64,000 bases of DNA from Patescibacteria group bacterium (GTDB taxonomy: Bacteria > Patescibacteriota > Microgenomatia > JAMCZE01): positions 62,456-126,455 of the forward strand of contig JAMCZE010000001.1 in the NCBI GenBank assembly GCA_023485845.1, in the 5' to 3' direction. The notes below the pieces were generated by a model. That model did no database searches and was not told the DNA's origin. It saw only the letters and a program-made list of their open reading frames with translations. Shown one piece after another: positions 18,114 to 52,333 of this stretch. Both the position numbers and the translations under genes were made by a program. How positions within the stretch are numbered: position 1 is the first letter of the stretch; every line of letters begins with the position of its first letter.

Positions 18114-18114
18114 A

Positions 18115-25650: not shown

Positions 25651-26068
25651 TTTTGCATGTAACATCGGACACATTCAACTTGATGTTCCCCATCAGGTTT
25701 GGGAAGCTGTGGTGGCCGGAGGCAATGTCGACCCTTTGATTTCCCGGTTTTTACACTCCACGCCGTCTTTCTATGCTAATAATCTTCTTCGTTGCTATCT
25801 TTCCTATTTTTCCCCGGACTTTCTAACCCAAGCGTTCACTCTTGTTGGCCTGATTCTTTTCGGCCTGGGGTTATGGCACCTGGTGATCAATAATCACTGG
25901 AAACTTCTCGCTCTCGTTCTTCTCGCCCCGCTCTCACCACTTTTCAATATCCCCCAAAGCGGACTATATCAAGGCGCCATTCTCTATTTTACTCTCGTCC
26001 TAGTGATACTTTTCGGGATTTATAATTTATTTGTATGGTTAGTAAAGATAAAATCCTCCTGGTGGTAG
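25640..26068 (+). CDS. Hypothetical small membrane protein (3 TM)
   Basis: ORF bridging two GT-C genes, with hydrophobic segments. The start could be 25616 or 25640. No recognisable motif. Confidence 0.35.
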   Translation: MNFDFACNIGHIQLDVPHQVWEAVVAGGNVDPLISRFLHSTPSFYANNLLRCYLSYFSPDFLTQAFTLVGLILFGLGLWHLVINNHWKLLALVLLAPLSPLFNIPQSGLYQGAILYFTLVLVILFGIYNLFVWLVKIKSSWW

Positions 26069-27627
26069 TTGTTTTTTTGGCGTTTGTTTTGCGGTTCTAC
26101 CAGTTGGGGAGTAATCCGCCAAGTTTATATTGGGATGAAGCGTCACTAGGTTATAACGCCTTTTCTATTGCCACCACCCTGCGTGATGAGCACGGCGAGT
26201 TTTTACCCTTAACCCGCTTTATTGCCTTTGGTGATTATAAAGCGCCCGGCTACATTTATGCAGCCGCTGCCGCCGTCAAACTTTTCGGCCTTTCCGAGTT
26301 AACCGTCCGTTTGTCTTCCGCTCTGGCCGGCACCTTATTGGTTTTAGTGACCTATTTTTTAGTTAAGGAGTTAATTAATGATAAGCAGATAGCTTTAATT
26401 TCTTCGTTTTTGGTCGCCATTTCACCGTGGTCATTGCAATTGAGCCGGGGAGCTTTCGAGGCTAATCTCGCTACCCTTTTCTCCACCGCTGGCGTTTGGT
26501 TTTTTCTTATTGCTCTTCGCCGTAAATCAGCTATCAGCTATCAGCTATCAGCTATCAGCTTCATCTTGTCAATGTACACCTTCAATTCTCACCGGATCTT
26601 CGTGCCGCTGATGATTGGAGCACTACTACTAATTTTTTCCCGTCGTCTCTGGATGCAGAAAAAACATGTTGGCCTGTTTCTTGTATCTTGTTTCTTGTTT
26701 CTTGTTCCCTTGTTATTGTATGCCCGGACCCGAGAAGCCCAGCTGCGTTTTAATGAGGTCAGTTGGCTTAATGATTCTGCCCCGATTGAGTTGTCTAACC
26801 AACGGATCGCTTATGATCATGATGTCTGGTGGGCAAAAATTATTCATAACCGCCGGGTGGTCTACAGCCTGGAGTTTCTCAAACACTACACTGACGCTTT
26901 TAGCACCGACTTCCTATTTATAAAGGGTGACGTTAATGAGCGGTTGTCTATCCAAACCATGGGCGAGCTATATTTAATTGATCTGCCGTTTTTGTTGGCT
27001 GGCCTTTATCTGTTGGTTCGGCGCCCCAATAAATCGACGGCCGTCATCTTGGCCTGGGCATTATTGGCACCAATTCCGGCGGCCATGGCTCGGGAAACGC
27101 CCCACGCGCTGCGGACACTTAATCTTTTGCCGATTCCCCAGATTATCACCGCCATCGGAGTGGCGTGGTCTATCAAGAAATTTCCTAAATTCCTTATCCC
27201 CCTGACCCTCCTAATCTCCCTTAGTGTCTTATTTTATCTTCACAGTTATTATATTGATTATCCGAAAAAATATGATCTGGCTTGGCAGTATGGTTATAAA
27301 CAATTGGTCAGCTATGTGGCGGCGCATGAGAATAACTACGATCATATTAGTGTCACCGAGACCTATGGCCGGCCTTATATTTATTTTCTCTTCTACGAGC
27401 AATACCCCCTGGAGAAATACTTGCAGACAGTGAGCACAGACCGGGATTGGTATGGCTTTTGGTATGTCCACGGCTTTGATAAACTGGTTTTTGGAGACAC
27501 AGCGCCGGGGCAGGGGAGCACGCTTTTTGTCCGCGGGCCGGACGAAGCTCCGGCGGGCGCAAAATTGGTCGATACAATTGATGATTTGAATCATAAACCT
27601 GTCTTTTTGTTATGGGCATCGCGTTAG
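26035..27627 (+). CDS. GT-C glycosyltransferase, PMT/ArnT-like
   Basis: LYWDEASLGYNAFSIA motif; 530 aa. Contains (ATCAGCT)5 and a (GTTTCTT)n tract in frame. Confidence 0.7.
   Translation: MVSKDKILLVVVVFLAFVLRFYQLGSNPPSLYWDEASLGYNAFSIATTLRDEHGEFLPLTRFIAFGDYKAPGYIYAAAAAVKLFGLSELTVRLSSALAGTLLVLVTYFLVKELINDKQIALISSFLVAISPWSLQLSRGAFEANLATLFSTAGVWFFLIALRRKSAISYQLSAISFILSMYTFNSHRIFVPLMIGALLLIFSRRLWMQKKHVGLFLVSCFLFLVPLLLYARTREAQLRFNEVSWLNDSAPIELSNQRIAYDHDVWWAKIIHNRRVVYSLEFLKHYTDAFSTDFLFIKGDVNERLSIQTMGELYLIDLPFLLAGLYLLVRRPNKSTAVILAWALLAPIPAAMARETPHALRTLNLLPIPQIITAIGVAWSIKKFPKFLIPLTLLISLSVLFYLHSYYIDYPKKYDLAWQYGYKQLVSYVAAHENNYDHISVTETYGRPYIYFLFYEQYPLEKYLQTVSTDRDWYGFWYVHGFDKLVFGDTAPGQGSTLFVRGPDEAPAGAKLVDTIDDLNHKPVFLLWASR
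26526..26560. repeat. Perfect heptanucleotide repeat (ATCAGCT)5 inside CDS
   Basis: 35 bp, 5 exact copies, read directly. Encodes ..SAISYQLSAIS..; a one-unit change shifts the frame. Confidence 0.9.
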
Positions 27628-28976
27628 TAATCAGTTTTGTGTTTTACACCCTACTTTCCTGGGCGATTTTATTTCGTGATGCCTGGACGTTAGAAGTGTT
27701 ACGAACAAAGTTTTACCCCGGACAAGCAGCTTTAATCAACCAGATTGAACTATTCCTTCAGCCATTAAAACTGAACACTATTCCTACCCTATTATTTGCT
27801 GTTTTTGCCATTTTTGCGTTTATTGTTTACTTTTTGGCCCTGCGAAAACGAATAGCAGCCTCGAAAATCTTGATTTTCTCTTTGCTTTTCCAAATTATCG
27901 TCTTTTTCTCTTATCCCATCCTTTCCACTGACGTTTTGAGTTACATCCTCTCGGATCGGATCGCCGTGGTTTATCATCAGAGCGTCTGGACCACTAAACC
28001 GAATGTTTTTAACCACGACCCCTACTATTATTTGGTTTATCCCATTTATGCCGCTTCTGATTGGACAAACCAGACTCGGATCTACGGCCCGGTCAATCAG
28101 GTGATCTACTCGGCCGTGACCGCGATCTCCGGGAATGATTTTCTGACTAATCTAGCGGCGCATAAGTTAGTGGTGTTGGTTTTTAATCTGCTGACAATGG
28201 CCCTGGTCTATAAGATTTTGAAGGAGCATTTCCCTGATAAATTAAATTTTAGCCTGGTGTTGCTTTTTTGGAACCCGTTATTTATTTTGGAAACAGTCGG
28301 TTCCGGCCACAACGACATCTTGATGGTTTTCTTTATGTTGCTCTCCTATCTTTTCTATCTTGGAAAGAAGCCAATTTTGGTGGCGCTGGCACTGGCACTG
28401 GCCGTTAATGTCAAGTCCACCGCCTTGCTCTTGGCCACGTTTTACACTGTAGTCTTTCCTCTAACATTTTTTGCGCCCTTTTGCGCCTTTGCATTTGCTG
28501 GATTTTTGACAATGGGAGTGAGTTTGTCGGCCTTTATCAGGCGGACGGCTTTTAGCACCACCCTTTATTGGCAATCCCTGCCGCAACAAGTGGCAAGGGT
28601 CTTGCCTTTTGGCACGCGCGTTCTCACGCCGGTCTTTTTGGTTATTTACGCTTTTCAGTGTCTGCGCGGCTGGCTGACCCGGCGCGATCCGTTAGTTTTG
28701 TATGGCCAGGCAATTCTTTTTTATCTTCTTTTTGCCCTGGGGGCCTATTGGAATTGGTATAGTCTTTGGGTCCTGACCGCATTTGCCTTCTTGGGGCGGG
28801 GACTTTGGAGCCGGATCGCAGCCGCTTTCACTTTCACTTCAGCCCTTGCCTATCCGCTCTATTGGCTCTCATTGCGATTTAACTACCAACATCCCCTCTG
28901 GCCCGTGATAATATATTTAGTGATTGCCGGGGGACCGGTGGGGGTTTTTCTCTATGATAAAGTTAAAGCGCGCTGA
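27612..28976 (+). CDS. Polytopic membrane protein, DUF2029/GT87-like GT-C
   Basis: STDVLSYILSDRI..NHDPYYYLVYP..IYGP loop motifs are shared with 1444..2496. About 10 TM. Confidence 0.55.
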   Translation: MGIALVISFVFYTLLSWAILFRDAWTLEVLRTKFYPGQAALINQIELFLQPLKLNTIPTLLFAVFAIFAFIVYFLALRKRIAASKILIFSLLFQIIVFFSYPILSTDVLSYILSDRIAVVYHQSVWTTKPNVFNHDPYYYLVYPIYAASDWTNQTRIYGPVNQVIYSAVTAISGNDFLTNLAAHKLVVLVFNLLTMALVYKILKEHFPDKLNFSLVLLFWNPLFILETVGSGHNDILMVFFMLLSYLFYLGKKPILVALALALAVNVKSTALLLATFYTVVFPLTFFAPFCAFAFAGFLTMGVSLSAFIRRTAFSTTLYWQSLPQQVARVLPFGTRVLTPVFLVIYAFQCLRGWLTRRDPLVLYGQAILFYLLFALGAYWNWYSLWVLTAFAFLGRGLWSRIAAAFTFTSALAYPLYWLSLRFNYQHPLWPVIIYLVIAGGPVGVFLYDKVKAR

Positions 28977-30405
28977 TATTTTTGCCTGGGTTCTTCTGAC
29001 GTCTGGTTATCTGATTAGTCGTCTGGTTAACTTGGGAATTATTCCCATCTTCACTGATGAGGCCATCTATTTGCGCTGGAGCCAAATCATGGCCAATGAC
29101 GCGGCGCTGCGCTATTTGCCCCTGGTTGACGGCAAACCGCCGCTATTTATGTGGCTAACAGCCGTGGTGATGCGCCTTTTGCCTCGCCTTGACCCACTTT
29201 TAACCGGACGGTTGGTTTCTGTTGGCGCTGGTCTTGCCAGCACCATCGGCATCTTTTTTGCTTCTTATGTGCTCTTTAAAAACAAAAAAATCTCTTATCT
29301 TGCTTCTCTATTCTATATACTCACCCCTTTCTGTTTTTTTTACGATCGTTTCGGCCTTGATGATTCACTCTTGGCGATGTTTGGCATCTGGAGCTTGGGT
29401 TTGGGTGTTTTATTGGCGAAGAAACTCCGCCTGGATGTGGCGATGATTGATGGAATCGCCATCGGTTTTGGGCTCTTGACCAAAACCCCGGCCAATTTTT
29501 TCCTGGTGCTTTTGCCGACCCTGCTACTATTTTTTGATTTTCGCAATAAGAACTGGCAGTCTAACCTGTTAAAACTGGCCGGATTGTTTATGGTGGTAGT
29601 GGTTTTTGCCCAGGGCATTTTCTCCGTCTTGCGGCTTTTTCCGCTGTTTAGCATGATTGGTCAAAAAAACCTGGAATTTGTTGTTCCTTTGTCAGTTTTG
29701 ATCACCCACCCATTGGAATTTTTCCCGGGCAATTTGCACAGCCTACTTAGTTGGGAATTTGTTTATCTAACCCCCTTAATCTCCCTGATATCCCTTATTG
29801 GTCTTTGGGTTGGCCTGAAGAAGTGGCCGCGGCAAACTCTTTTCTTGGCTGCCGGTTTTGTCCTCCCTCTGGTGGCCATTGCCTTGTTCAATAAAGTTAT
29901 CTATCCGCGTTATCTTTCGACTTTCACCCCGGTTCTTTTAATCCTGGCCGCCGTCGGTCTGGCCAATTGTAAGAAAGTTTCCCTAATCTTTCTGATTTCC
30001 CTTATAGTTTTTGCCTGGCCAATCTACACTGATCTTAAGTTGATCACTGACCCGGTTCATGCTCCGCTCCTGCAGGCGGACCGGGACCAATATCTTGACG
30101 GCTGGCCGGCCGGCTTTGGCGTGATTCAGATTCGCAAGTATTTAGCGGGCAAAACCGGGGTCATCGCCACCGAGGGGACCTTTGGTCTAATGCCTTATTC
30201 ACTGGAGCTTTATCAAAAAGACTATCCGAATGTGGAAATAAAAGCTTATTGGCCGCTGCCGGCAACTGCCCCGGCCGGATTGAACTATGTGATTGTCTAC
30301 CAGCACCCCGGTGCGCCGGCCGGCTGGCACGTGGAACTGCTGGCGAAATACCGTCAAGGCCTGGGCGATAGCTATTTGCGGCTGTATAAAGTGCTTCCCC
30401 AATGA
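28954..30405 (+). CDS. GT-C glycosyltransferase, ArnT-like (GT83-like)
   Basis: ATG 28954 chosen (track TTG 28924). PIFTDEAIYLRW DE motif; 483 aa polytopic. Confidence 0.7.
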   Translation: MIKLKRADIFAWVLLTSGYLISRLVNLGIIPIFTDEAIYLRWSQIMANDAALRYLPLVDGKPPLFMWLTAVVMRLLPRLDPLLTGRLVSVGAGLASTIGIFFASYVLFKNKKISYLASLFYILTPFCFFYDRFGLDDSLLAMFGIWSLGLGVLLAKKLRLDVAMIDGIAIGFGLLTKTPANFFLVLLPTLLLFFDFRNKNWQSNLLKLAGLFMVVVVFAQGIFSVLRLFPLFSMIGQKNLEFVVPLSVLITHPLEFFPGNLHSLLSWEFVYLTPLISLISLIGLWVGLKKWPRQTLFLAAGFVLPLVAIALFNKVIYPRYLSTFTPVLLILAAVGLANCKKVSLIFLISLIVFAWPIYTDLKLITDPVHAPLLQADRDQYLDGWPAGFGVIQIRKYLAGKTGVIATEGTFGLMPYSLELYQKDYPNVEIKAYWPLPATAPAGLNYVIVYQHPGAPAGWHVELLAKYRQGLGDSYLRLYKVLPQ

Positions 30406-31883
30406 AGAAATATGCGCTTTTATTAACCATTGTTTTTCTAGCGGCATTGCTTCGCCTCTGGCAGTTGGGAGTCAATCCGCCCAGTCTGGATTGGGATGAA
30501 GCCTCGTTAGGCTGGAACGCTTATTCAATTTTAAAAACCGGTAGTGATGAGTTTGGTAAACCCATCCCGGTTTCTTTGCGGTCGTTTAATGACTATAAAC
30601 CGGCCATGTATGCCTACGCGGCCATTCCGTCGATTGCCGTTTTTGGCCTCAATGAATTTTCCGTTCGCCTGCCTTCGGCAATCGCCGGCATCTTGACGGT
30701 GTTGGTTACTTTCTTTCTGGTCAAGGAACTCACAGACAATGATCTATTGAGTTACTGTGTCGCTGGGTTACTGGCGGTTTCTCCTTGGTCGATTCAGTTT
30801 TCCCGAGTGGCTTTTGAAGCCAATCTTGCCCTTTTTTTCTTTGTTCTCGGGGCCTACTTTTTAATTAAGTTTCTCCACCGCCCCAACATTCTATTTTCTA
30901 TTGCCTACTGTCTGTCGTTTGTTGCCTCTATTTATTCCTATCACAGTCCGCGGGTGGTGGTGCCGGTGTTATTGGTCGCAATAGTTTTAATTTATCGCCG
31001 CATCTTTCTTTCCCACTGGCGTTTGTTTCTTGTTTCTTATTTCTTATTTCTTGCACTGCTTTATCCCTTGGCGCGCAACACGGTTCACACGGGGTCACTT
31101 GAGGCCCGCTATCAAACAGTAGCCGCCAAATTAGATCCAATGGTGATCACCGGCAACTACTTGCGCCATTTTAATTTTGACTTTCTTTTTCTGACCGGGG
31201 ACGACCAGGACCGCCATCACGCGCCCGATATGGGCCTTCTTTATTTGTGGGAGTTTCCTTTTCTTCTAGCTGGCCTTTATTTTCTGGTTAAGGATCGGCC
31301 AAAGTTTTTGCCCTTTTTGGCCATATGGTTTTTTGCCGCCCCGACTGCCTCGTCTTTAGCTAACGATGCTCCCCATGCCGTCCGCTCCCTTTTATTCTTG
31401 CCCACCTGGCAAATTATTACCGCCTATGGTCTGGTGAATCTCCTTCGTGGTCGTCCCCTTCTGGTTTGTCTGATCAGTCTGGTTATCTTCGCTAATGTTT
31501 TCTATTTTCTCCATCAATATTTTGTTCATTTGCCGGTGGAGGATGCCCCCGCTTGGCAATATGGCTACAAACAAATGGTCAAAAACGTTTTGGCGGTCGA
31601 GAAAAATTATGACCGAATTTATGTCACCGGTGCTTATGACCAGCCCTACATTTATTTTCTCTTTTATGGCCGCATCGCCCCGACGATCAAAAATGATGGC
31701 TATTTCTACACTGGCTTTGACAAATACCAGTTTTCCACCACCGACGTAGTCGACCTCAAGGGCCTCTACGTCCTGGCCCCGAAAGACAACCCTCCGGCGG
31801 GATATAAATTAAATGTTTTAGAAACGGTTAATTTCCCCGCTGGCGCCCCGGCGTTTGAAATTGGTACAATACAAAAATCATGA
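30402..31883 (+). CDS. GT-C glycosyltransferase, PMT/ArnT-like (close paralog of the 22101..24181 gene)
   Basis: LDWDEASLGWNAYSILKTGSDEFGKPIP..DYKPAMYAY closely matches the duplicated gene's N-terminus. Contains a (TTTCTTR)4 tract. Confidence 0.7.
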   Translation: MKKYALLLTIVFLAALLRLWQLGVNPPSLDWDEASLGWNAYSILKTGSDEFGKPIPVSLRSFNDYKPAMYAYAAIPSIAVFGLNEFSVRLPSAIAGILTVLVTFFLVKELTDNDLLSYCVAGLLAVSPWSIQFSRVAFEANLALFFFVLGAYFLIKFLHRPNILFSIAYCLSFVASIYSYHSPRVVVPVLLVAIVLIYRRIFLSHWRLFLVSYFLFLALLYPLARNTVHTGSLEARYQTVAAKLDPMVITGNYLRHFNFDFLFLTGDDQDRHHAPDMGLLYLWEFPFLLAGLYFLVKDRPKFLPFLAIWFFAAPTASSLANDAPHAVRSLLFLPTWQIITAYGLVNLLRGRPLLVCLISLVIFANVFYFLHQYFVHLPVEDAPAWQYGYKQMVKNVLAVEKNYDRIYVTGAYDQPYIYFLFYGRIAPTIKNDGYFYTGFDKYQFSTTDVVDLKGLYVLAPKDNPPAGYKLNVLETVNFPAGAPAFEIGTIQKS

Positions 31884-32635
31884 AGCCATATTTGTCGGTT
31901 GTCATCCCTGCCTATAATGAAGCCAGGAACTTTCGGGATGGAGTTTTGGACCAGGCAATAGGCTATCTAAAAAAACAAAAATATTCCTGGGAGGTTTTGC
32001 TGGTTAATGACGGTTCCACCGACGACACTAAGGTCCTTTTGGAAGGATTTTGCAAAAAGAATAGGAACTGCCGATTGATGACAATTTCCCACGGTGGCAA
32101 GGCAGCAGCCGTGACCGCCGGAATGCTGGCAGCGGGAGGAGAAATGGTTGTTTTCACCGACTTTGACCAGTCAACACCGCTTAACCAAATAGAGAAGTTT
32201 ATTAAGGAGCACAAAGCCGGGGCAGGCGTGGTGGTCGGTGATCGGGGAGGAATGGGCAAGATGAATAACACCCTCTTTCGCCGGATCAGAAGTATGGTTT
32301 TTGTCACCTTAGTAAATATTATCCTTTTGCCGGGGATCCGTGACAGCCAATGTGGGTTCAAGTCCTTCACCGGTGGCGCCGCCAAAGAGATCTTCAAGAG
32401 CTTGAAGGTTACCCGGACAAGGAAAGTCACCGGGGGCTACATGGGGGCGTTTGATGTTGAGGTTCTTTACTTGGCTCGAAAATTTGGCTATAAAATAGTT
32501 CAAGTCCCGGTAATTTGGAAAAATGTCGAAGGAACCAGGCTTAATCCTTGGCTGGAGCCACTTAAGATGTTGTGCGACACCGTTAAAGTTCGTTTAACCA
32601 ATTATGATTATCACTCAAACACCGCTGCGGATTAG
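31880..32635 (+). CDS. GT2 glycosyltransferase, soluble DPM1-like (paralog of 668..1447)
   Basis: LSVVIPAYNEARN..EVLLVNDGSTDDT..TDFDQSTP motifs. Confidence 0.8.
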   Translation: MKPYLSVVIPAYNEARNFRDGVLDQAIGYLKKQKYSWEVLLVNDGSTDDTKVLLEGFCKKNRNCRLMTISHGGKAAAVTAGMLAAGGEMVVFTDFDQSTPLNQIEKFIKEHKAGAGVVVGDRGGMGKMNNTLFRRIRSMVFVTLVNIILLPGIRDSQCGFKSFTGGAAKEIFKSLKVTRTRKVTGGYMGAFDVEVLYLARKFGYKIVQVPVIWKNVEGTRLNPWLEPLKMLCDTVKVRLTNYDYHSNTAAD

Positions 32636-33584
32636 TTTTCTTGGGGGCAACACCGATTTCCCGGATTTTTTCAGGAAACACGGCGGGGCGGTGCTGACCA
32701 CGGCTATCGATAAGTATATTTATTGTATTCTCACTGAACGCTTTGATGACAAGATTTATGTTAACTGGAGTAAGAAAGAAATTGTTGACAATGTTGATCA
32801 GATTGAACATGAACTGGTGCGGGAGGCCATGAAGAAAACCGGCGTCACCAAGGGGGTGGAAATTTCTTTTTTGGCAGACATTCCTTCCGAAGGTTCCGGC
32901 CTTGGTTCCTCCGGCTCGGTGTTGGTGGGAGCCTTAAACGCTCTCTATCACCATGTTGGTCACACCCCAACCCCAGAACAGCTAGCAGAAGAAGCGGTGG
33001 AGATTGAGGTGGAGAAATTGGGTAAACCGGTTGGTGTCCAGGACCAGTACATTGCCGCTTTTGGCGGTTTACGCTTTTTGGAATTTCACAAAACCGGAGA
33101 TATTTCTACCGAGAAAGTGAACTTAACCAACGGTCGGCTGGCCGATCTGGCGAGCTCTCTGATGCTTTTCTACACTGGTCGATCCCGACTTTCCAAGACT
33201 ATTTTGGTTGATGTCCATCAAAATCTTGACAAAAAAACACAAGTTCTCTTGCAAACTAAGAGGCTGGCGCAGACGGGGCACCGGGCACTGGTCAGCGGCA
33301 ACGTGCAAAAACTTGGAGAACTAATGAACGAATATTGGCAACTGAAAAAGGCGATGGCGGATAATATTTCCGACCGGGAGATCGATCGGATGTATTCTCT
33401 GGCAAAAAAGGCCGGGGCCATCGGCGGAAAAATTGCCGGCGCCGGGGGTGGCGGGTTTTTGGTGTTAATCGTTCCCAGCCAGAGGCGGGAATCAGTCCGC
33501 CAAGCCCTATCTTCTTATAAAGAGCTTCCTATTGGATTGGAGCGGGATGGCAGCAAGGTCATTTTTAATGTTCGCCGCTATTAG
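32604..33584 (+). CDS. GHMP-family sugar kinase, D-glycero-D-manno-heptose 7-phosphate kinase (HddA)-like
   Basis: GHMP ATP motif PSEGSGLGSSGS and C-terminal GAGGGGF. Placed directly upstream of gmhA. Confidence 0.65.
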   Translation: MIITQTPLRISFLGGNTDFPDFFRKHGGAVLTTAIDKYIYCILTERFDDKIYVNWSKKEIVDNVDQIEHELVREAMKKTGVTKGVEISFLADIPSEGSGLGSSGSVLVGALNALYHHVGHTPTPEQLAEEAVEIEVEKLGKPVGVQDQYIAAFGGLRFLEFHKTGDISTEKVNLTNGRLADLASSLMLFYTGRSRLSKTILVDVHQNLDKKTQVLLQTKRLAQTGHRALVSGNVQKLGELMNEYWQLKKAMADNISDREIDRMYSLAKKAGAIGGKIAGAGGGGFLVLIVPSQRRESVRQALSSYKELPIGLERDGSKVIFNVRRY

Positions 33585-33587
33585 AAC

Positions 33588-34175
33588 ATGAAAGACTACA
33601 TTGCCAATTTAAAGATATACCTGGATAAGATTAATTTGGCAAAGTTAGAATCCGCTGCTAAATTGCTAGCCGGTACTTATCAAAAACGCTCAACTGTGTT
33701 CGTGGTTGGTAATGGCGGATCAGCTGCCACCGCTTCGCATATTGCTTGTGATTTGGCCAAAACAGTTCGTGGACATAAAGGCGATTCCCCCTGGCTGTCT
33801 TTCAAGGTGATCACGCTGACCGACAACGTTCCCCTGATAACTGCCTGGAGCAATGATGTGGGCTATGAATCAGCTTATTCCGGTCAGTTAGAGGCCTTGG
33901 GAGAAAAAGGAGACTTGTTAATTGCCATTTCTTCTTCGGGAAACTCACAAAACATTCTAAACTGCGTTAAGGCTGCTCGGAAAATGGGAATCAAAACCAT
34001 TGGAATTTCCGGCTTTGGCGGGGGAAAACTAAAGAAAATTTGTGATCTTTCTTTAACCACGGATGCGGCCGCCTATGGTCCGGTCGAGGATATACAATTA
34101 ATTATCAACCACATGTTAACAGACTATTTTTTAAAAACATTGTCACAGGGAAAACTAAAAGTTAATACCCCATAA
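33588..34175 (+). CDS. gmhA: Phosphoheptose isomerase (SIS domain), GmhA
   Basis: VFVVGNGGSAATASHIACDL SIS/GmhA signature. 195 aa. Confidence 0.8.
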   Translation: MKDYIANLKIYLDKINLAKLESAAKLLAGTYQKRSTVFVVGNGGSAATASHIACDLAKTVRGHKGDSPWLSFKVITLTDNVPLITAWSNDVGYESAYSGQLEALGEKGDLLIAISSSGNSQNILNCVKAARKMGIKTIGISGFGGGKLKKICDLSLTTDAAAYGPVEDIQLIINHMLTDYFLKTLSQGKLKVNTP

Positions 34176-35528
34176 ACTTCCGGGCGGACAAATAAGTGAT
34201 AGTTGGGTTGCGATTATCCGGCAGTTGCGATAAATAGGCTACTTGGTATTTTCCCGGGTAAAAAACGGCAAAGAAATCCTGATTTGATAGGTCTAATTTT
34301 AACTCGCTTGCCGGGCTCCAGGGCAGTCCGGCATCCGCTGGTGTGTCATAGAAAACGATATTTTTGTTTCCTTGGTATGTTCGGAAATATGTTTCCACCC
34401 GTTTGGCCACCTGGGCTCCCTGAACGATCCAATGAGTTTGGGCAGTTAGCCGCAAAGTGAAAAGGGAAGTTGCCAGCCAGGCTCCGCAAATAATTAAGAG
34501 GAATTTATTATTTTGTCTGGCCATCAACCAGCCCAGAAACAAAACCAGCCCGACTAGGGGAACGCCCAGCTCATAGGTGAACTTGTGCCAGGGGAGAAAG
34601 GCTACTGGGACCAGTGTCAAGAAAAACCAGCTGGCAGCGATTATGGTTATTGCCCAGTTCCCTTTTGGTTTTTTAACCAGGGCAAAAAGAGCACCGGTCA
34701 CGGTAACGGCGAAAAATGCCAGGATCACCATTGTCTGTGTCCCGTGGAAAGCCCAAAGATTAGGGTTAATATGTAATCCCGGGCCGATGTAGTCAACCAG
34801 TAGCTCGGGAAGATTAAAGGCCCAAAGCAGATACCAACCCAGGGTGTTGAGAACCTTCGGTGAAAACTGCAAAACATACACGCTTCCCGGCGGCAGGCCA
34901 AAGAAAAGCAAATGGATAACTAGATAGGCGGCCACCAGCACATAATGGGGAATCAGGCTAAAAAGCCGGCGCCAAGATCTTTCCAAAAGAACCAACACGG
35001 TTAGCATGGGGGGATCATGATGGCGGTTTCCTTGGACATTAGCGCTGCCACTAGAGCCAGGAAGGACAGAATACCCCGTTTTTCTAAAAAAAGAATTACC
35101 GAAAGAAGAAAGAATAAGATTAATCCTGTTTCCTGAAAGATTGCGGTCCAATAGAGGTGGGCAAAGTGAGTAGCGGAAACGGCGTAGAGAAAGGTGCTGA
35201 TCAAAGCCGATTTCTCATTGCGAAGAATAATCTTTGCCAACCGGTGGATAAGATAGATGTCGGCAAAGAAGACAATAAAGGAAATAATGTGCAAAGGAAT
35301 GGGAGAAAGGTTAAACAGGTGGCTGACAAAAAAATAGGCTTGGGTGGTTAGCGGCCGGTAGGAGCCCATTCGTTCCGGGGCATGAATGGGGTCAAAAAAA
35401 TTTAAAAACCCGGCAACGCTATGGACATCGGCCAGCCGCAGTTCCAAAAAATCATCCCGGGTGAAGAAATTACCCAAGGACGGCAAAAAGAGCAGGAAGG
35501 CTAAAAGACAAATCAACTTAAGTTTCAT
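34162..35528 (-). pseudogene. Antisense-embedded GT-C-like membrane protein gene present as two ORFs (35001..35528 and 34162..35007) joined at a C6 tract
   Basis: Upstream ORF ends ..ATGATCCCCCCATGCTAA. The downstream ORF's ATG (35007) lies 7 nt inside it. A +1 C insertion in the C6 run (plus-strand G6 at 35008..35013) fuses both into one ~456-aa polytopic protein. Confidence 0.5.
35008..35013. repeat. G6/C6 homopolymer at an ORF junction
   Basis: Read directly; see the pseudogene entry above. Confidence 0.9.
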
Positions 35529-35552
35529 CTAAAGCTATGATATCATCAAATC
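35529..35552. promoter_or_regulatory. 24-bp divergent junction containing the 10-bp perfect palindrome ATGATATCAT (35537..35546)
   Basis: Read directly. TATGAT / TATCAT -10-like hexamers face both divergent starts (35528 minus, 35553 plus) at about 7 nt. Confidence 0.3.
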
Positions 35553-36428
35553 GTGAAACTTTGTGTCACCTTGGCCACCTTTAATGAGGAGAAGAACCTG
35601 GCCCGCTGTCTGGAAGCGGTCAAGGACATCGCCGATGAGATTGTGATTGTGGACGGCACTTCCACCGACAAAACCCGTGATATCGCCAAAAGCTTCGGGG
35701 CAAAAATTACCATGGTCTTAAACCGGCCGGAAAATTTCCACATAAATAAAGAGAAAGCTCTTCGTCTGTCGAAAAGCGAATGGATTCTTCAACTGGACGC
35801 AGATGAAGTGGTCTCTTCCGATCTTGCTAAAGAAATAATCAAAGTGGTTAACATGGATCCGGTGAGTCTGGAAAAATATCAAAATACCCTGCTGAACAAA
35901 GAATTATTTCTTAGGCACCAGTTGGTGGTGGAACAGCGCGATGGAAAAATTGGAAGTGATAGCGGCCCATATACGGCATTTTTTATTCCCCGCCTCAATT
36001 TTTTTCTGGGTAAATTCATCCGACATGGGGGTATTTACCCGGACGGAGTCATTAGACTAGTTAAGAATGGGCACGCCCATTTCCCCCAAAAAAGTGTTCA
36101 TGAACAAATTAAAATTGATGGTCGCGTGGGCTGGTTGACCAATAATCTCTTACACTATGGCAATCCAAGTTTTTCAACCTACCTGGAGAAGCGGTTTAAT
36201 CGATACACGAATATTATGGCGGTGAGTTTATCCGGCGGATTTATAGAGAATGTTATTTGGCGGCCATTGTTTGATAAATATCAAGGCTTTTTCTTTATTT
36301 ATTTTCGCCATCTGGGTTTTTTGGACGGTTTCCCGGGGTTTGTCTGGGCGCTTTTTTCCGCCCTGCATTTCCCGATTGCCTACTTTAAAAAGATGGAGAA
36401 AAAATATGGTGCGCGTTCAACTCATTAA
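35553..36428 (+). CDS. GT2 glycosyltransferase, WaaE/KdtX-like (paralog of 18115..18921)
   Basis: GTG start. LCVTLATFNEEKN..EIVIVDGTSTD..LQLDADE motifs. Confidence 0.7.
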   Translation: MKLCVTLATFNEEKNLARCLEAVKDIADEIVIVDGTSTDKTRDIAKSFGAKITMVLNRPENFHINKEKALRLSKSEWILQLDADEVVSSDLAKEIIKVVNMDPVSLEKYQNTLLNKELFLRHQLVVEQRDGKIGSDSGPYTAFFIPRLNFFLGKFIRHGGIYPDGVIRLVKNGHAHFPQKSVHEQIKIDGRVGWLTNNLLHYGNPSFSTYLEKRFNRYTNIMAVSLSGGFIENVIWRPLFDKYQGFFFIYFRHLGFLDGFPGFVWALFSALHFPIAYFKKMEKKYGARSTH

Positions 36429-37377
36429 CCCGCCAAATCTCGGCAACTCTTTCCGGGGTGTGGGTTTTTATGGACAGAATCTAACGGCCGCTTTGGAAAA
36501 GATTCCCGATTTGGACTTAACCGATCAAAATCCGCAGGTCATCCACTATCTCTATTTTGACCCGTTTTTTCTGACTTTGCCGCCATTTCACCGGGCAAGA
36601 ACCGTGGTCACTATTTTTGATCTCACGCCATTTATTCTTCCAACACTTTTTCCCCGCGGCCTCCGGGGGGAAATCAAATGGCAAATTCAAAAAAGGCTGG
36701 TGTCCCAAGCAGATGCCATTATCACCATTTCTCAATCCGCGAAAGCCGACATTGCCCGCATTATTGGTGTCCCCAAAGAAAAAATATTGGTCACCTATTT
36801 AGCAGCCGGCAAAAGCTGTCGACCAAAAAAGGTTAAGCAGGAAAATTTTATCCTTTATATTGGCGACGTCAACCCAAACAAAAATCTTTCCAGTCTGATT
36901 AGGGCGATGGTCCAGCTGCCAGACGAGAAATTAGTCCTTGTCGGCAAGGCCTTCACGGACATGAATCTGCCGGAGACCAGGGCAATCAGGGCCGAAATTA
37001 AAAATTTGGGACTTGAAAAAAAGGTTTCCCTGCCGGGATTTATTAGTGAGGAGGAAAAAGTGAGCCTTCTTAATCGGGCGGCGGTCTATGTTCAGCCGTC
37101 AATTTATGAAGGTTTTGGACTGCCGGTTTTGGAGGCCATGGCTTGTGGCACGCCGGTGGTTTGCGGCCGAAATTCCAGTTTGCCGGAAATTGCGGGAGAA
37201 GCGGCCGTGTTTGCGGATGTTTCTGATTCCAGTGATCTAGCGCGAAAGATTTTGGAAGCAAAGAAGGGGAAGTTAATTCAAAAAGGACTAGCCCAAGCGG
37301 CAAAATTTAGTTGGGAAAAAACTGCCCGGGAAACTGCCCGGATTTATGAAGACCTTTGTCATCATTCCCGCTTATAA
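36406..37377 (+). CDS. GT4 (GT-B fold) glycosyltransferase
   Basis: GGAGAA RBS 6 nt upstream of ATG 36406 (track start 36250 rejected). C-terminal EGFGLPVLEAMACGTPVV. Confidence 0.8.
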   Translation: MVRVQLINPPNLGNSFRGVGFYGQNLTAALEKIPDLDLTDQNPQVIHYLYFDPFFLTLPPFHRARTVVTIFDLTPFILPTLFPRGLRGEIKWQIQKRLVSQADAIITISQSAKADIARIIGVPKEKILVTYLAAGKSCRPKKVKQENFILYIGDVNPNKNLSSLIRAMVQLPDEKLVLVGKAFTDMNLPETRAIRAEIKNLGLEKKVSLPGFISEEEKVSLLNRAAVYVQPSIYEGFGLPVLEAMACGTPVVCGRNSSLPEIAGEAAVFADVSDSSDLARKILEAKKGKLIQKGLAQAAKFSWEKTARETARIYEDLCHHSRL

Positions 37378-38017
37378 CGAGGCCGAAACCATCGCTAATG
37401 TGATTGCCGATTTGCGCCGCTTCGGCTATTGGGACATTGTGGTGGTCAATGACGGTTCCCGAGACGACACGGGCAAGATTGCCCGCCGGTTAAAAGTCAC
37501 GGTGCTGACCCATGTGCTCAATCGCGGCTTGGGGGCGGCTTTGGGCACCGGGTTTGCTTATGCCCAAAAGACGGGGGCTGATGTTCTGGTCACGTTTGAT
37601 GCTGACGGTCAGCATAAGGCAAAAGACATAAAGAAACTTCTCGATGTGTTGGTGAAAAAAAATGTTGACGTGGTGATTGGCAGCCGGACTCGGCAGCGGG
37701 CCAATATGCCGCTTGGTCGCCGCCTGTTAAATTTTCTAAGTAACGTTCTCACGCTTATTTTGTTCCAAGTTTGGTCCAGTGATTCCCAATCAGGCCTACG
37801 GGTGTTTAACAAAAAAGCCCTGGAATGTATTAATATTAAGACGGACAAGATGGAGGTCAGCAGTGAATTTTTTAAGGAAATAAGAGATAATCATCTAAAG
37901 TTTGCCGAGGTGCCGATTTCCGCCGTCTACACGGCCTATGGGATGCTCAGCAGCAAACAAGGGGAATTCGCGTCAGCCAGAATTTCCTGGAAACTTTTTT
38001 TGCGGCTGTTTCGCTAA
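37346..38017 (+). CDS. GT2 glycosyltransferase, DPM1/GtrB-like (soluble)
   Basis: FVIIPAYNEAETI..IVVVNDGSRDDT..TFDADGQH. Confidence 0.8.
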   Translation: MKTFVIIPAYNEAETIANVIADLRRFGYWDIVVVNDGSRDDTGKIARRLKVTVLTHVLNRGLGAALGTGFAYAQKTGADVLVTFDADGQHKAKDIKKLLDVLVKKNVDVVIGSRTRQRANMPLGRRLLNFLSNVLTLILFQVWSSDSQSGLRVFNKKALECINIKTDKMEVSSEFFKEIRDNHLKFAEVPISAVYTAYGMLSSKQGEFASARISWKLFLRLFR

Positions 38018-38020
38018 ATT

Positions 38021-38350
38021 ATGTTTTTATTTCAAATCATCACTATCTTTTTCCTGCTGTTTGCTCTAAGCCGGGTTTTTTTGCGGGCTAAGGGAGGTCA
38101 GATTAAAACCGGGGAATCTTTTTTCTGGGGGGTGGTTTTCACCGCCGCCGGATTGGCCATTGTTTTCCCCCGGGAGCTAACGTCGCTGGCAAATTCCTTG
38201 GGCGTTGGTCGGGGAGCGGATCTGGTGGTCTACATTTCCATCATCGCCCTCTTCTATTTGGTTTTTCGCATCTATGTGATGATGGAGAACATCCGTCACG
38301 AAATCACCGAACTGGTCCGCAAAGTTGCCCTGGAAAAGAAAACTAAATGA
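38021..38350 (+). CDS. DUF2304-like small membrane protein
   Basis: 109 aa, 3 TM, charged C-terminal tail. This family typically sits beside DPM1-like GT2 genes (recalled from memory). Confidence 0.5.
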
Positions 38351-39048
38351 AAACGCTCTCCGTAATTATTCCTGTCTACAATGAGGAACAGACGGTGGCG
38401 GAGGTGATTGAACGAGTGGCTGCGGTCAAACTGCCGCGGATAAAAAAAGAAATTATTGTCGTCAATGATGGCTCAACCGACCGAACCCGGGAACGGATTA
38501 GACTAACTCCGAAAAAGGGCAATGGGTTAATCGTTCATAATCAACTAATAAATTTGGGAAAGGGAGCAGCCGTCCGAACCGGTTTAGCGCTTGCCAGTGG
38601 AGATTTCATTATTATCCAAGATGCCGATTTAGAGCTTAACCCGCAGGAGTATTACAAGATTCTTTCCCCGATCGTCTCCGGAAAGAGTCAGGTTGTTTAC
38701 GGATCCCGTTTTGCTAAAGGCCAAAACGCCATTTCTTTGCGGACCAAAGTTGCCAACGGCATGCTGACCGCTTTGACAAATTGTCTTTTTGGCGGCCATC
38801 TGACGGATATGGAAACAGCATATAAAGCTTTTGACAAAAAAGTCTTAGGCTTTTTAAGTAAAACAAAACTTCGGTCTCTTGAATTTGAATTCGAGCCGGA
38901 AATCACCGCAAAATTGTTAAAAAATAAGATAAAGATTTTAGAAGTGCCGATTGAATATCACCCGCGCACTGTCGCCGCCGGCAAGAAAATTCGGCTCAAG
39001 GATGGCTTGGAAGCGATTTTAACTTTGTTGCGTTGCCGATTTTGGTAA
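38347..39048 (+). CDS. GT2 glycosyltransferase, DPM1/GtrB-like (soluble)
   Basis: [33 protein letters not shown]. Confidence 0.8.
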
Positions 39049-39058
39049 GATTAATTTA

Positions 39059-40120
39059 ATGAAGATTCTTTGGTTCACGGATTTCTTCCCGGAAAGTGAT
39101 AAGGCGGAAATCACCGGCGGGGTGGAGGCCCGCTGTTTTTTTGTCCGGCGCCATTTGGAGGCCGCCGGCCATCAGGTGCAAATCATCGCCCGGCCGACCC
39201 ACGGTCAGGTTTGGAAACCGGCTTCATTTGGCTCAATGCCGGAACGGTTTCTCTTTACGATAAAATCCATCATTTGTGGGTTGCAGTCAGATTTCGATAT
39301 TGTTGAAGGAACAAACTTTGCCACCTATCCGGTGGCCTGGCTGGTCGGCGTTCTTAAGCACAAGCCGGTCGTCCTTTGGTATCCGGATGTTTTTCTGGGT
39401 TCTTGGATAAAGACCGTTGGCCCGGTAGGGACGATTGGCGGGCTAATTGAGTGGCTGGTTCTTCGCCTGCCTGTCAACCACTATCTGGCTATCAGCCAAT
39501 CAACGAAAGACAAGTTGGTTAAAGCCGGCGTTTTGGCAAAAAAGATCAGCGTGGTCGATTGCGGTGTTGAGCCAGCAGAATTTGTCGGCTTAAAGAAAAC
39601 AGTTAAAAAATTTGACGTTTGTGTCGTCTCCCGGCTGGTTGGCTATAAGCGGGTCGACGCGCTGGTGGCTGCCGCGCCGCCAGATTTAATAGTGGCAATT
39701 GTCGGCCAGGGACCGGAAAGGTCAAAGTTAGAGAAACTGGCGGTTGGGAAGAAAATAATTTTTTTTGGCCACGTGGCTTCGCATAAAAAAGTCTTGGAAA
39801 CCATCGCCTCTTCAAGGATTTTCTGTTTGTTGTCAACCACCGAGGGTTTTGGGATTGTGATTATTGAGGCGGCGGCGTTGGGGGTGCCGTTTGTCGCCCG
39901 GGACATTCCCGTGATTGCCGAAATCACCGCTAACGGCCGTGGGGGGCTGTTATTCCATGACGATGATCTGTCCAACCAGATCAACCGATTATTAACGGAC
40001 AAAAAACTTTATCAGCAGAAATGCCGGGAAGCAACGACCTTGGCTAAGAAATACACCTGGGAGAAAGCGGCGGCGGAAACAGAAAAGATTTATGCTAGAA
40101 TTTTAGAAAATGTCCACTAA
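39059..40120 (+). CDS. GT4 (GT-B fold) glycosyltransferase
   Basis: C-terminal TEGFGIVIIEAAALGVPFV Glycos_transf_1 motif. Confidence 0.75.
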   Translation: MKILWFTDFFPESDKAEITGGVEARCFFVRRHLEAAGHQVQIIARPTHGQVWKPASFGSMPERFLFTIKSIICGLQSDFDIVEGTNFATYPVAWLVGVLKHKPVVLWYPDVFLGSWIKTVGPVGTIGGLIEWLVLRLPVNHYLAISQSTKDKLVKAGVLAKKISVVDCGVEPAEFVGLKKTVKKFDVCVVSRLVGYKRVDALVAAAPPDLIVAIVGQGPERSKLEKLAVGKKIIFFGHVASHKKVLETIASSRIFCLLSTTEGFGIVIIEAAALGVPFVARDIPVIAEITANGRGGLLFHDDDLSNQINRLLTDKKLYQQKCREATTLAKKYTWEKAAAETEKIYARILENVH

Positions 40121-40439
40121 GACATTGGTCATCTTGTTAATGCTGTTCAACACCATGGGGACGGCAGTGGCCCAGGTTCTTCTGAAACTTGGCGTTAGTG
40201 ACCTTGCAAAAAGTTGGCCGTTCGTTTTGCTGGGAATCGCGATTTACGGCTTAGCAATGCTGGTTTGGTTATTTGTTCTAAGTAAAGCGGACTTATCTTT
40301 TGCCTACAGTCTGGTGGCGTTAACGTTTGTTTTCCTTCTAATTTTTTCCCGGTTGTTTCTGCATGAAACCCTGAGTGCTCTCCGGCTGTCTGGGGCAGCA
40401 TTAATTATCGTGGGAATTTTCCTTGTTGCCCGCTCGTAA
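40110..40439 (+). CDS. SMR/EamA-like 4-TM protein resembling ArnE/ArnF (undecaprenyl-phosphate-aminoarabinose flippase subunit)
   Basis: 109 aa, 4 TM. By my recollection it aligns with E. coli ArnE: ..AVAQVLLKLG.. and ..YGLAMLVWLFVLSKADLSFAYSLVALTFVFL..LHETLSALRLSGAALIIVGIFLV. Confidence 0.6.
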   Translation: MSTKTLVILLMLFNTMGTAVAQVLLKLGVSDLAKSWPFVLLGIAIYGLAMLVWLFVLSKADLSFAYSLVALTFVFLLIFSRLFLHETLSALRLSGAALIIVGIFLVARS

Positions 40440-40443
40440 TTAT

Positions 40444-41388
40444 ATGAAAACCTGCTTCCTTATTGATGATCCGTCGCCAGTCGGCGGAGGGCCGGAGCAC
40501 CTTCGGCGGGTGAGTGCCATTTTGCGCCAGAAATACGGCTGCGCTATTGATGTCGTCACTCCGCTGACAATGGACCAAAAATTTAATGTTCATGACTTTT
40601 GGCAGCGGGTGAAATTCACGTTCTGGGTTATGTGGTTTCTGTTTAACTCTGACTATGATGTTTATCATAGTCATGCGTTTTCCGCTGATGCTTTCCTGCC
40701 GGCCGTTAAACTGCGCGGCAAAAAATGCGGCATCACTGTCCATGGCCAAGGGCAAAGTTTAGTTGGCGGGGGAATCCTTAATCGAACCGGTTTGCCGCGA
40801 TTGCTGCGCTGGTTAGTTTTGCGCGTTTGGCCCTATGATTTTCGCCTGTCGGCGGCCACTTTGCCTGGGTTTGTGCGGGTTGGCAACGGGGTGGACTGGG
40901 AAGAATTTAAAAAAGTTAAAAGAAAAAGCGGCGGCCCGTTCACTGTCCTTTGCGTCAGTCGTCGGGATCCGGTTAAAGGAATTGACGTTTTAGAAAAAGC
41001 GGTCGGGAGTCTGCCGTGGGTGAAACTTAATTTAGTTTCCGGCCGGCGGCGCACCCTGGCCGACTTTTCCGCTGCTGATATTTATGTTCTTCCCTCACTG
41101 TCCGAGGGCTTGCCCATTGTTCTCCTGGAGGCGATGGCGGCCAAGCTGCCGGTTGTCGCTACCAATGTGGGTGACTGCCGGGAAATTGTGGAAGCGGCCA
41201 AGTGTGGGCTTATTGTCCCGCCGGGGGATTGTGCCCGGCTGGCCCAGGCAATTTGGCAGCTGAAGCAAGACAGAAATCGCGCTAAAATGGGGGAGCGAGG
41301 CTTTATTTATGTCCAAAAGAATTTTAGCTGGGACAAAGTGGCCGCTGCTTGTTATTCTGCTTATCGGGGGGCTGGCACTCTCCTATAA
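40444..41388 (+). CDS. GT4 (GT-B fold) glycosyltransferase
   Basis: ATG 40444 lies 5 nt after the upstream stop. C-terminal SEGLPIVLLEAMAAKLPVV. Confidence 0.75.
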   Translation: MKTCFLIDDPSPVGGGPEHLRRVSAILRQKYGCAIDVVTPLTMDQKFNVHDFWQRVKFTFWVMWFLFNSDYDVYHSHAFSADAFLPAVKLRGKKCGITVHGQGQSLVGGGILNRTGLPRLLRWLVLRVWPYDFRLSAATLPGFVRVGNGVDWEEFKKVKRKSGGPFTVLCVSRRDPVKGIDVLEKAVGSLPWVKLNLVSGRRRTLADFSAADIYVLPSLSEGLPIVLLEAMAAKLPVVATNVGDCREIVEAAKCGLIVPPGDCARLAQAIWQLKQDRNRAKMGERGFIYVQKNFSWDKVAAACYSAYRGAGTLL

Positions 41389-42598
41389 CCTTGACAAACC
41401 TTTTTGGGGTCACCATGACTGGAATGGAGTTTATTGGGGGACGGTGGCCCGTAATTTTGCCCGTTTTGGGCCAATTAATCTCCATTTTGCCCAGATTCTT
41501 TCCCCGGGCGACTATAATTTCCACTTTTTGCCGCTATTCACTTTGATCTGGTCGGCATTTTTTGGCGTGTTTGGGGTGGCCAATTGGGTGTCGCGCTTTA
41601 TGGCGGCGACGTTTTCCCTGGCGGCCGTTGCCGTTTTCTATCAATTGGCGCGGCGCTATTTTTCTCTCCGGGTGGCCGTGATGGGGGCAATCTTTTGGCT
41701 GGCCACTCCGATGTTTATTTATTTCGGCAAGATGCCGGTGCACGAAATCCCCCTAATGTTTTTTGTCCTGGCGGCACTTTATTTTTATCTAGGCGGCCGC
41801 GATCGGCTGATGTTTTTTTTCATCATTCTGGCAGAGCTGACCACTTGGCCGGGTTTCTTTTTAGTCCCGGCCATCACAATCCATTATTTTCTTTTCGGTC
41901 GTCATTCTGGCAAGCGCAGCGCGGCCAGAATCTTAATTTTGTTGTGGTTTGTTTCTTTCGTCCTTTTTGGCCTTCACCTAACCCACGACTATTTGGTCAC
42001 CGGCTCCTTTTTCGGCGGGGGACTGGCACAAATTTTTTTCCAGCGGGTTGGGGGCGTGCCGCTGGTTCCTTATCTGACTACCTTGGCGCACTGGGCCTGG
42101 ACGTATTACTCGTTTTTGATCCCATTGTCATTGGTTGGGTTGTTTTTAGTCAGGCGCCGAGATATTTTATTGCTGCTTCTAACCTACGCCCTTTTCTATC
42201 CAATTATTTTCCGTGATGCTGCATTTCGCCATGACTATCTCCTGATTTATTTCTGGCCGTTTCTGGCGCTGTCGTCAGCTCTAGCTGTCAATCGGCTATT
42301 TTCCAAAAAGCCTGTTCTAATTTTTTCGTTTCTAGCCATTGTCGTGGGCATGGTGGCTTTGCGTTTTCAATATATCCTGGCTTTGGAAAACAGTGATCTC
42401 TACCGGGATAGTGTGGTGTTTGGTCAATATATTCATGACCACACGGCTCCAGCGGACAGAATCCGGGTGGTCACGGCCGATCCAAATGTTCCTTGGGACG
42501 GCTGGTTTATTGGTTATTATGCCGATCGGCCAATTGTTTTCTCCGGCTTTAACAAAACGGCCACCTATTCCCCCGGCGGGAAAATGACGGTAGAATAG
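41309..42598 (+). CDS. GT-C glycosyltransferase-like polytopic membrane protein
   Basis: 429 aa, more than 10 TM. N-terminal region ..DKPFWGHHDWNGVYW... Start uncertain (80-nt overlap with upstream gene). Confidence 0.55.
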   Translation: MSKRILAGTKWPLLVILLIGGLALSYNLDKPFWGHHDWNGVYWGTVARNFARFGPINLHFAQILSPGDYNFHFLPLFTLIWSAFFGVFGVANWVSRFMAATFSLAAVAVFYQLARRYFSLRVAVMGAIFWLATPMFIYFGKMPVHEIPLMFFVLAALYFYLGGRDRLMFFFIILAELTTWPGFFLVPAITIHYFLFGRHSGKRSAARILILLWFVSFVLFGLHLTHDYLVTGSFFGGGLAQIFFQRVGGVPLVPYLTTLAHWAWTYYSFLIPLSLVGLFLVRRRDILLLLLTYALFYPIIFRDAAFRHDYLLIYFWPFLALSSALAVNRLFSKKPVLIFSFLAIVVGMVALRFQYILALENSDLYRDSVVFGQYIHDHTAPADRIRVVTADPNVPWDGWFIGYYADRPIVFSGFNKTATYSPGGKMTVE

Positions 42599-42606
42599 CA
42601 TTAACC

Positions 42607-43083
42607 ATGAAGTTGCTGGTTATCACAGAATTTAACCCGGAAAAGCTTGGGGGAGCAGAGATGCATGCCAGCCAAGTTTTAAAACGGATCAGGCCAAAGT
42701 TTTCCGCGGTTATTGTTCCCAAGATTTCCTACCCCTACGTCCCCAATTTTTCCTGGATTTTTTATATGCTTTTTGCCACACCGGTTATTTTCTGGGAGAC
42801 GATTCGATCTAAGCCGGATTTGCTTTGGGCCACCCTGGATTTTCCCCAGGCCCAGGTGGGAGCAGTTATTAAGGTGCTCACTAGTAAGCCGCTTTACGTC
42901 ACTTCGCAAAATCCCCTGTTGGGGGAGGAAGAGTTTGTTGGTTTGGGCGGGAAATTAGTCAAATATTTGGTTTCCTTTGCGTTTGCCCGGGCCGATGTGG
43001 TGGCCGCTGTCAGCACTTATTCCGCCAACCTGGCGAAAAAACTCGGGGCCAAAAAAGTGGTTATTATTCCCAACGGCGTATGA
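42607..43083 (+). CDS. GT4 N-terminal Rossmann-domain fragment, ends ..VVIIPNGV*
   Basis: Stops just after the IPNG motif that normally precedes the C-terminal domain. ATGA overlap with the next ORF. Confidence 0.55.
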   Translation: MKLLVITEFNPEKLGGAEMHASQVLKRIRPKFSAVIVPKISYPYVPNFSWIFYMLFATPVIFWETIRSKPDLLWATLDFPQAQVGAVIKVLTSKPLYVTSQNPLLGEEEFVGLGGKLVKYLVSFAFARADVVAAVSTYSANLAKKLGAKKVVIIPNGV

Positions 43084-49512: not shown

Positions 49513-49520
49513 TCAAATTT

Positions 49521-50345: not shown

Positions 50346-50351
50346 GTGCTT

Positions 50352-52332: not shown

Positions 52333-52333
52333 T

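Follow-up and report, generated by a model that had tools for sequence, protein, structure and literature searches.

A one-base frameshift, probably young and fixed, divides a conserved GT-C glycosyltransferase gene in a Patescibacteria glycan gene cluster

Glycosyltransferases of the GT-C type are lipid-linked-sugar-dependent membrane enzymes, and those of the PMT_2/PF13231 clan, among them ArnT (GT83) and PMT (GT39), share a polytopic N-terminal membrane domain with the protein described here. Two kinds of described system are pertinent to the interruption of its gene. The contingency loci found in glycan genes of Campylobacter, of Neisseria (pgtA) and of Helicobacter (poly-G/C tracts) combine a G/C homopolymer within a glycosyltransferase ORF with a reading frame that is toggled by a change of one base, and the tracts concerned are typically 8 or more bases long; in Neisseria meningitidis, tracts of 8 or more are those that are predominantly variable (PMC5084427). 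Shorter tracts can also vary, as illustrated by Neisseria NMB1760, in which C5/C6 variation is seen between strains (PMC5084427), and by the 7-nt tract of glpK in M. tuberculosis, cited as a case of short-tract variation together with a 7G tract that gains one base at ~3e-8 per generation in M. smegmatis (PMC10334774). The second kind is represented by the G-run mutants of herpesvirus thymidine kinase (PMC5009743), in which a one-base indel at a homopolymer forms a shift-prone sequence, and 'compensatory' low-level frameshifting at such indels has been documented (PMC5009743).

The locus described here has features of both. It shares with the contingency loci a G/C homopolymer within a glycosyltransferase ORF and a one-base toggle of the frame, and with the thymidine kinase mutants a one-base indel at a homopolymer that forms a shift-prone sequence, from which a trace of product is to be expected. 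Unlike the contingency loci, it has a tract of only 6 nt that is not conserved in orthologues, is not accompanied by genome-wide tract enrichment and shows no length polymorphism among assemblies; unlike the documented cases of compensatory slippage, its trace product is an expectation only, and stimulatory elements are lacking. The window, by which we mean the whole stretch of 64,000 nucleotides that was analysed, contains the following features at this locus.

35528..35001, minus strand: ORF1, 175 aa, N-terminal GT-C fragment, hypothetical protein MCL4390436.1 / MCL5431567.1
35007..34162, minus strand: ORF2, 281 aa, C-terminal GT-C fragment, MCL4390437.1 / MCL5431566.1
35008..35013, minus strand: C6 run (G6 on the plus strand), the frameshift site
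35001..35007, minus strand: ATGCTAA, 7 nt shared by the two ORFs, from the start codon of ORF2 to the stop codon of ORF1
35007..35013, minus strand: C_CCC_CCA, a -1 slippery heptamer of the form X_XXY_YYZ in the frame of ORF1

Around the seam the minus strand reads ...GCC ATC ATG ATC CCC CCA TGC TAA CCG..., where TAA (35003..35001) is the stop codon of ORF1. The frame of ORF2 is -1 relative to that of ORF1 and is open from 35151, with its first ATG at 35007..35005. The C6 run takes in the final base of the Ile172 codon, the whole codon of the invariant Pro173 and two bases of codon 174, which is variable, and a single base inserted between the Pro173 codon and the ATG results in one protein of 455 aa, whose junction reads ...SKETAIMIPP-MLTVLVLLE... 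(junction peptide of the full-length product, ETAIMIPPMLTVLVLLER). The run is thus a coding-region homopolymer at which the addition of one base toggles the frame and yields the 455-aa ORF. A preliminary description of this DNA had located the two ORFs, the ATG embedded 7 nt inside ORF1 and the C6 run correctly. It had also proposed that one extra base fuses the ORFs into a protein of about 456 aa, the size of the neighbouring GT-C enzymes; the fusion, at 455 aa, is borne out by a gap-free alignment to homologues and by a PMT_2 match across the seam, and the neighbours with PMT/PMT_2, MptA_B or YfhO domains are indeed of like size, at 429-530 aa.

The two ORFs are halves of one gene of the GT-C family. 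A search of 5.8 billion clusters with the fused sequence recovered 94 homologues besides ORF2 itself (P0001, 100% identity), nearly all of them 447-514 aa in length, and the closest 14, at 57-62% identity, cover 97-100% of the query. When the fused protein was aligned with 23 homologues of 447-502 aa that match it end to end, no gap was required at the seam, and all 53 columns that are invariant in these 24 sequences are kept across both halves. The motif SKETAIMIP, with invariant K166, E167, A169 and P173, closes ORF1 at its extreme C-terminus, and the alignment runs on from there into ORF2. ORF1 also holds TM1 and, directly after the helix at residues 2-19, the pair D25-D26, which is invariant in the 24 sequences and which we take to be the acidic motif of the first loop that typifies GT-C enzymes; this motif is catalytic in that class. 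The other predicted transmembrane helices and a small C-terminal alpha/beta domain (fused residues 390-455) are contained in ORF2. In Pfam, PMT_2 (PF13231) matches the fused protein at residues 68-205, across the seam, with 23.2 bits and an E-value of 8.7e-5, which is below the gathering cut-off of 26.1, while neither ORF1 alone nor ORF2 alone matches it. Precomputed PF13231 matches are present on four of the homologues (P0017, P0019, P0039 and P0044), the last of which also matches PF02366, and NCBIfam yielded only a weak, sub-threshold match to a 'cell surface glycopolymer formation protein' family.

A profile search against the sequences in the PDB gave no solved relative, and the family was therefore assigned by fold instead. 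The AlphaFold2 model built on the 24-sequence alignment has a pLDDT of 87.5 and a pTM of 0.89, and with Foldseek its matches in the PDB at ranks 1-16 are all GT-C enzymes (STT3, ALG12, AglB, ALG9, PglB, ArnT, AftB and ALG6), with probabilities of 0.94-1.00, E-values down to 1.4e-4 and TMq of 0.35-0.50. The fused protein is on this basis confidently predicted to have the GT-C fold, with STT3/PglB/AglB, ALG12/ALG9/ALG6 and AftB as its structural kin. What it has in common with GT-C enzymes are the acidic pair after TM1, the PMT_2-like region at residues 68-205 and these top structural matches; it differs from the known members in being very divergent, with TM-scores of only ~0.45-0.5, in being short (455 aa) with a small C-terminal domain, and in that its gene is interrupted in this genome.

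Six orthologous loci were compared with this one. A single intact gene of 451-462 aa is present in all six (L005, L006, L009, L036, L037 and L038), in the same antisense slot relative to the surrounding cluster, and in all six it converges on the side of a GHMP-kinase gene, which is directly adjacent in four loci and separated by one to three genes in L009 and L038. On the other side, a GT2 gene diverges from the orthologue across a spacer of ~24-36 nt in five of the six loci, the exception being L036, where the upstream ORF is unannotated, 70 aa long and 66 nt away. The reading frame in the window is disrupted relative to these intact syntenic genes, as in a frameshift pseudogene. At the DNA level the C-run is absent from the seam in all six loci, where the codons are CCC ACC GTC, CCC GCT GTG, CCA GCG GTT, CCC ATT ATT, CCG GCA GTT and CCG ATT GTT. 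Residue 174 is variable among homologues (A, T, I, V, F or G), and at fused position 175 this genome alone has Met, in place of the V, I or A of the 14 closest homologues.

To cover the wider family, 1.84 billion representatives were scanned exhaustively with HMMER and an orthologue profile. ORF2 coincides exactly with profile positions 175-454, and among the best 150 family representatives a start at position 175 is seen only in this ORF2; the few other short matches have starts spread over positions 137-243 and resemble proteins cut off at contig edges. A word-index search with ORF1 alone gave three matches, two of them short fragments, and is uninformative as regards other N-terminal fragments. 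Relatives in GTDB genomes are only 25-43% identical, most being matched over nearly the whole query, and no relative closer than 62% protein identity was found by which the lesion could be dated. Given that relatives encode one intact protein, and that only this ORF2 starts at profile position 175, the split is, as judged by sequence comparison, lineage-specific.

The C6 sequence is the same wherever this genome has been recovered. The window is 100% identical, C6 included, to the contig JAMCSA010000023.1 of an NCBI MAG (GCA_023378825.1, 'Patescibacteria group bacterium'), whose source is a Microgenomates/Woesebacteria-like member of the Patescibacteria, and Logan assemblies of SRR10252151 (over 12.8 kb) and SRR10267473 (over 7.8 kb) are also 100% identical, with C6. 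Each fragment has two NCBI protein accessions, which implies that two MAG records hold the lesion. The recovered contigs (two MAG accessions and two Logan runs, which may share part of their read sets) are therefore without length polymorphism, all being C6, as evidence at the level of assemblies that is compatible with a minority C7 subpopulation in the reads. The fused C7 protein is absent from a collection of 15 billion sequences. A pattern that admits length variants of the C-run (GCCATCATGAT-N{4,10}-ATGCTAACCGTGTTGG) had zero matches in JGI metagenome contigs and GTDB representative genomes, an uninformative result. The preliminary description had held that a genuinely split gene would show C6 throughout and two separate proteins in relatives as well; of these the first is seen in all assemblies and the second is contradicted by the single intact protein of the relatives, a combination that points to a lineage-specific lesion rather than to an anciently split gene.

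We regard a young, fixed frameshift in a conserved syntenic GT-C gene, with loss or partial loss of function (a hypomorph), as the probable explanation of these data. The ancestral gene would have encoded a single protein of ~455 aa, from which one base was lost between the codon of the invariant Pro173 and codon 175. This loss could have been a contraction of C7 to C6 or, equally well, the removal of the first base (A or G) of an ACC or GCC codon at position 174; by the latter route the deletion would itself create the C6 run (ATC CCC CCA TG). Because loss of the first base of ACC or GCC yields the observed sequence, the run may be the product rather than the cause of the deletion. Translation would now end two codons after the lesion, in the middle of a hydrophobic helix, leaving a young pseudogene or a strong hypomorph that gene callers annotate as two hypothetical proteins. 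If some full-length enzyme is still made, it would be incidental, arising from low-level -1 slippage on C_CCC_CCA or from rare reversion of C6 to C7. The data show the lesion itself, its recurrence across assemblies, the intact and syntenic state of the orthologues, the GT-C fold and the location of the break in a helix; loss of function, recency and the incidental nature of any such rescue are what we infer.

The condition of the two halves bears on how old the lesion is. Measured against the 14 closest homologues, mean identity is 0.67 for the N-terminal and 0.55 for the C-terminal half, a C/N ratio of 0.82 that lies within the range of 0.80-0.90 seen among the homologues themselves. ORF2 contains no secondary stop codons, and the promoter-like palindrome upstream of ORF1 is intact. 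Since the conservation of both halves is within the orthologue range, either the lesion is very recent or selection has not been abolished. The perfect preservation of both halves, together with an ATG situated exactly at the seam and the unique Met175, counts against a pseudogene and fits a working split, recoding or a switch as well. A phmmer comparison with the other ORFs of the window found no paralogue of the fused protein and so gave no sign of redundancy.

Homopolymer-length switching, which the preliminary description had put forward as the classic mechanism for surface-glycan genes, would have slipped-strand events during replication interconvert C6 (OFF) and C7 (ON) and so switch the GT-C enzyme, the sampled populations being mostly OFF. 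The position of the homopolymer within a glycan-biosynthesis gene, the exact restoration of the frame by one additional C and the intactness of both halves and of the promoter motif are all as this proposal would have it, and the glpK and NMB1760 tracts show that short runs can vary. A tract of 6 nt is nevertheless below the hypermutable range for G/C (~8 or more), it may itself stem from the deletion, no orthologue has a C-run at the site, every recovered assembly is C6 and the C7 protein does not occur in public data. The window as a whole is depleted of such tracts, with 18 G/C runs of at least 6 observed and ~41 expected under a first-order Markov model, the longest being shorter than 8. 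Since its C6 tract is not conserved, has no companion tracts and is of one length in all assemblies, the locus does not qualify as a contingency locus. Classical phase variation finds no support in these data and we consider it unlikely to operate here, while an occasional reversion of C6 to C7 is possible in principle.

Another way in which the gene could have stayed active is as two polypeptides, of 175 and 281 aa, that come together in the membrane as an active GT-C enzyme, ORF2 being translated by termination-reinitiation at ATGCTAA. The 7-nt overlap is compatible with translational coupling, and the placement of the ATG exactly at the seam means that no residue is lost; all the invariant residues are kept, and Met175 is found in this genome only. 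Such an arrangement is difficult to reconcile with the location of the break, which in the AF2 model falls not in a loop but in the middle of a predicted hydrophobic helix at residues 167-183 (ETAIMIPP/MLTVLVLLE), and a designed two-subunit split is for this reason improbable. Neither an orthologue nor any other of the best 150 family representatives is split at position 175, and the ATG of ORF2 is preceded by C-rich sequence without an initiation signal. We therefore hold a functional split to be distinctly unlikely.

The seam could also be viewed more broadly as a working low-frequency switch or attenuator by which an episymbiotic member of the Patescibacteria tunes the level of a surface-glycan GT-C enzyme, through C6/C7 slippage or through -1 ribosomal slippage. 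Were this true, the seam would stand as the first such site, of contingency or of recoding, to be described in the Candidate Phyla Radiation, and a mixture of C6 and C7 in reads would give an initial indication of contingency-type variation in that group; nothing found here points that way, and our expectation that the seam works in this manner is correspondingly low.

A more specific form of this proposal is that the full-length enzyme is made by programmed -1 frameshifting on C_CCC_CCA and that its expression is thereby set low, the slip possibly being aided by slow Pro-Pro peptide-bond formation and by the nearby stop codon. The heptamer is a perfect X_XXY_YYZ sequence, and a -1 slip on it gives the same orthologue-like IPPML junction as the C7 allele. 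In E. coli, C_CC.C_CC.A is among the heptamers that give >0.1% -1 frameshifting without stimulators, and genes of E. coli contain it in frame less often than expected (Sharma et al., PMC4066793); it is thus plausible, by analogy, that a trace of full-length product arises from slippage at this site, and compensatory frameshifting at indels provides a precedent (PMC5009743). What would mark a programmed site is lacking. The sequence downstream of the seam gave no sign of a stimulatory stem-loop or pseudoknot (fold z-scores of +0.23 for 65 nt and +0.44 for 105 nt relative to shuffles), Rfam had no relevant match at the seam, and no upstream SD-like stimulator is present at the usual distance, the only AAGGA being 21 nt upstream of the ATG. 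The two-frame arrangement is not conserved in any orthologue, all of these being single ORFs, and the efficiency expected without stimulators, ~0.1-1%, amounts to leakiness and not to a programme. Recoding in this sense we judge very improbable, and the seam to be at most leaky.

Least probable of all is that the C6 run is a sequencing or assembly artefact and that the genome really carries a seventh C, or some other base, in the run and an intact gene: homopolymers are the classic site of indel errors, as the preliminary description had pointed out, and the gene is otherwise pristine, but error was rejected as the main explanation, and is unlikely at the consensus level, because C6 recurs in both NCBI MAGs and in the Logan assembly of each of the two runs, and because among the 80 long homopolymer runs of the window (A/T of at least 7 or G/C of at least 6) a frame break coincides with the C6 run only and with none of the 79 others. 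The data are also presumed to be from Illumina, SPAdes-style contig names in a sibling MAG record of the same accession series suggesting short reads of that type, and a 6-mer homopolymer is not error-prone at the consensus level on this platform.

A young frameshift, our preferred reading, is an event of an ordinary kind, and the main value of describing it lies in the correction of annotation. The proteins MCL4390436.1 and MCL4390437.1, like their twins MCL5431567.1 and MCL5431566.1, represent halves of one disrupted GT-C gene and should be flagged accordingly. One member of a conserved syntenic glycan-assembly cluster would then be knocked out or strongly attenuated in this population, and the lesion may reflect an ongoing turnover of surface-glycan genes in the Patescibacteria.

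Upstream of ORF1 the disrupted gene is separated from its divergent neighbour by a short spacer.

35529..35552, no strand assigned: divergent spacer of 24 nt between ORF1 and the GT2 gene (35553..36428, plus strand)

The spacer contains the palindrome (T)ATGATATCAT at about 35536..35546, which is intact here and recurs, 8-10 nt away from the ATG, in all the orthologous loci but L036 (L005, L006, L009, L037 and L038, five of the six). On either strand its sequence corresponds to an extended -10 box (TGnTATCAT), and it is probably a bidirectional -10 element, which suggests a bidirectional promoter that would give leaderless or near-leaderless mRNAs for both the GT-C and the GT2 gene. In the window at large, a Shine-Dalgarno core lies within 20 nt of only 7 of 42 ATG gene starts, and an argument against the initiation of ORF2 based on the lack of such a core was dropped for that reason. 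Several of the starts without one (those at 14151, 22101, 26035, 31880, 39059 and 49521, among others) have, 6-10 nt ahead of the ATG, a box that resembles TATAAT; these motif positions hint at widespread leaderless translation in this genome.

On the other side of the disrupted gene, a SIS-domain gene (33588..34175, plus strand) stands between the GT-C and GHMP-kinase genes and, lying tail-to-tail with ORF2, shares 14 nt with its end. The corresponding slot is empty in L005, L006, L036 and L037, is occupied in L009 by genes for an SDR, an acetyltransferase and a 2-hydroxyacid dehydrogenase, and in L038 by an epimerase gene; since its contents differ between orthologous loci, the slot is a variable insertion point.

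The surrounding cluster includes an unusually dense array of GT-C-type membrane glycosyltransferase genes (7251..31883 and 41309..42598, plus strand), made up of at least six PMT/PMT_2 genes, two of the YfhO family, one of the MptA_B family and a Polysacc_synt_3 flippase gene, with GT2 and GT4 genes interleaved. In sequence, none of the genes in this array resembles the frameshifted gene to a detectable degree. Four ORFs of the glycan cluster, three of them large (528, 537 and 552 aa) and one of 150 aa, are without a Pfam match at E <= 1e-3.

12343..13929, minus strand: ORF without a Pfam match
14151..15764, plus strand: ORF without a Pfam match
7251..8909, plus strand: ORF without a Pfam match
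25616..26068, plus strand: ORF without a Pfam match

The first of these is the sole other minus-strand gene in the window. The G+C content falls from ~0.47-0.50 to ~0.36-0.42 after ~44 kb (44000..64000 compared with 1..44000) and the cumulative GC skew climbs steadily; the region ~44000..64000 may represent a part of the glycan gene cluster with a composition of its own.
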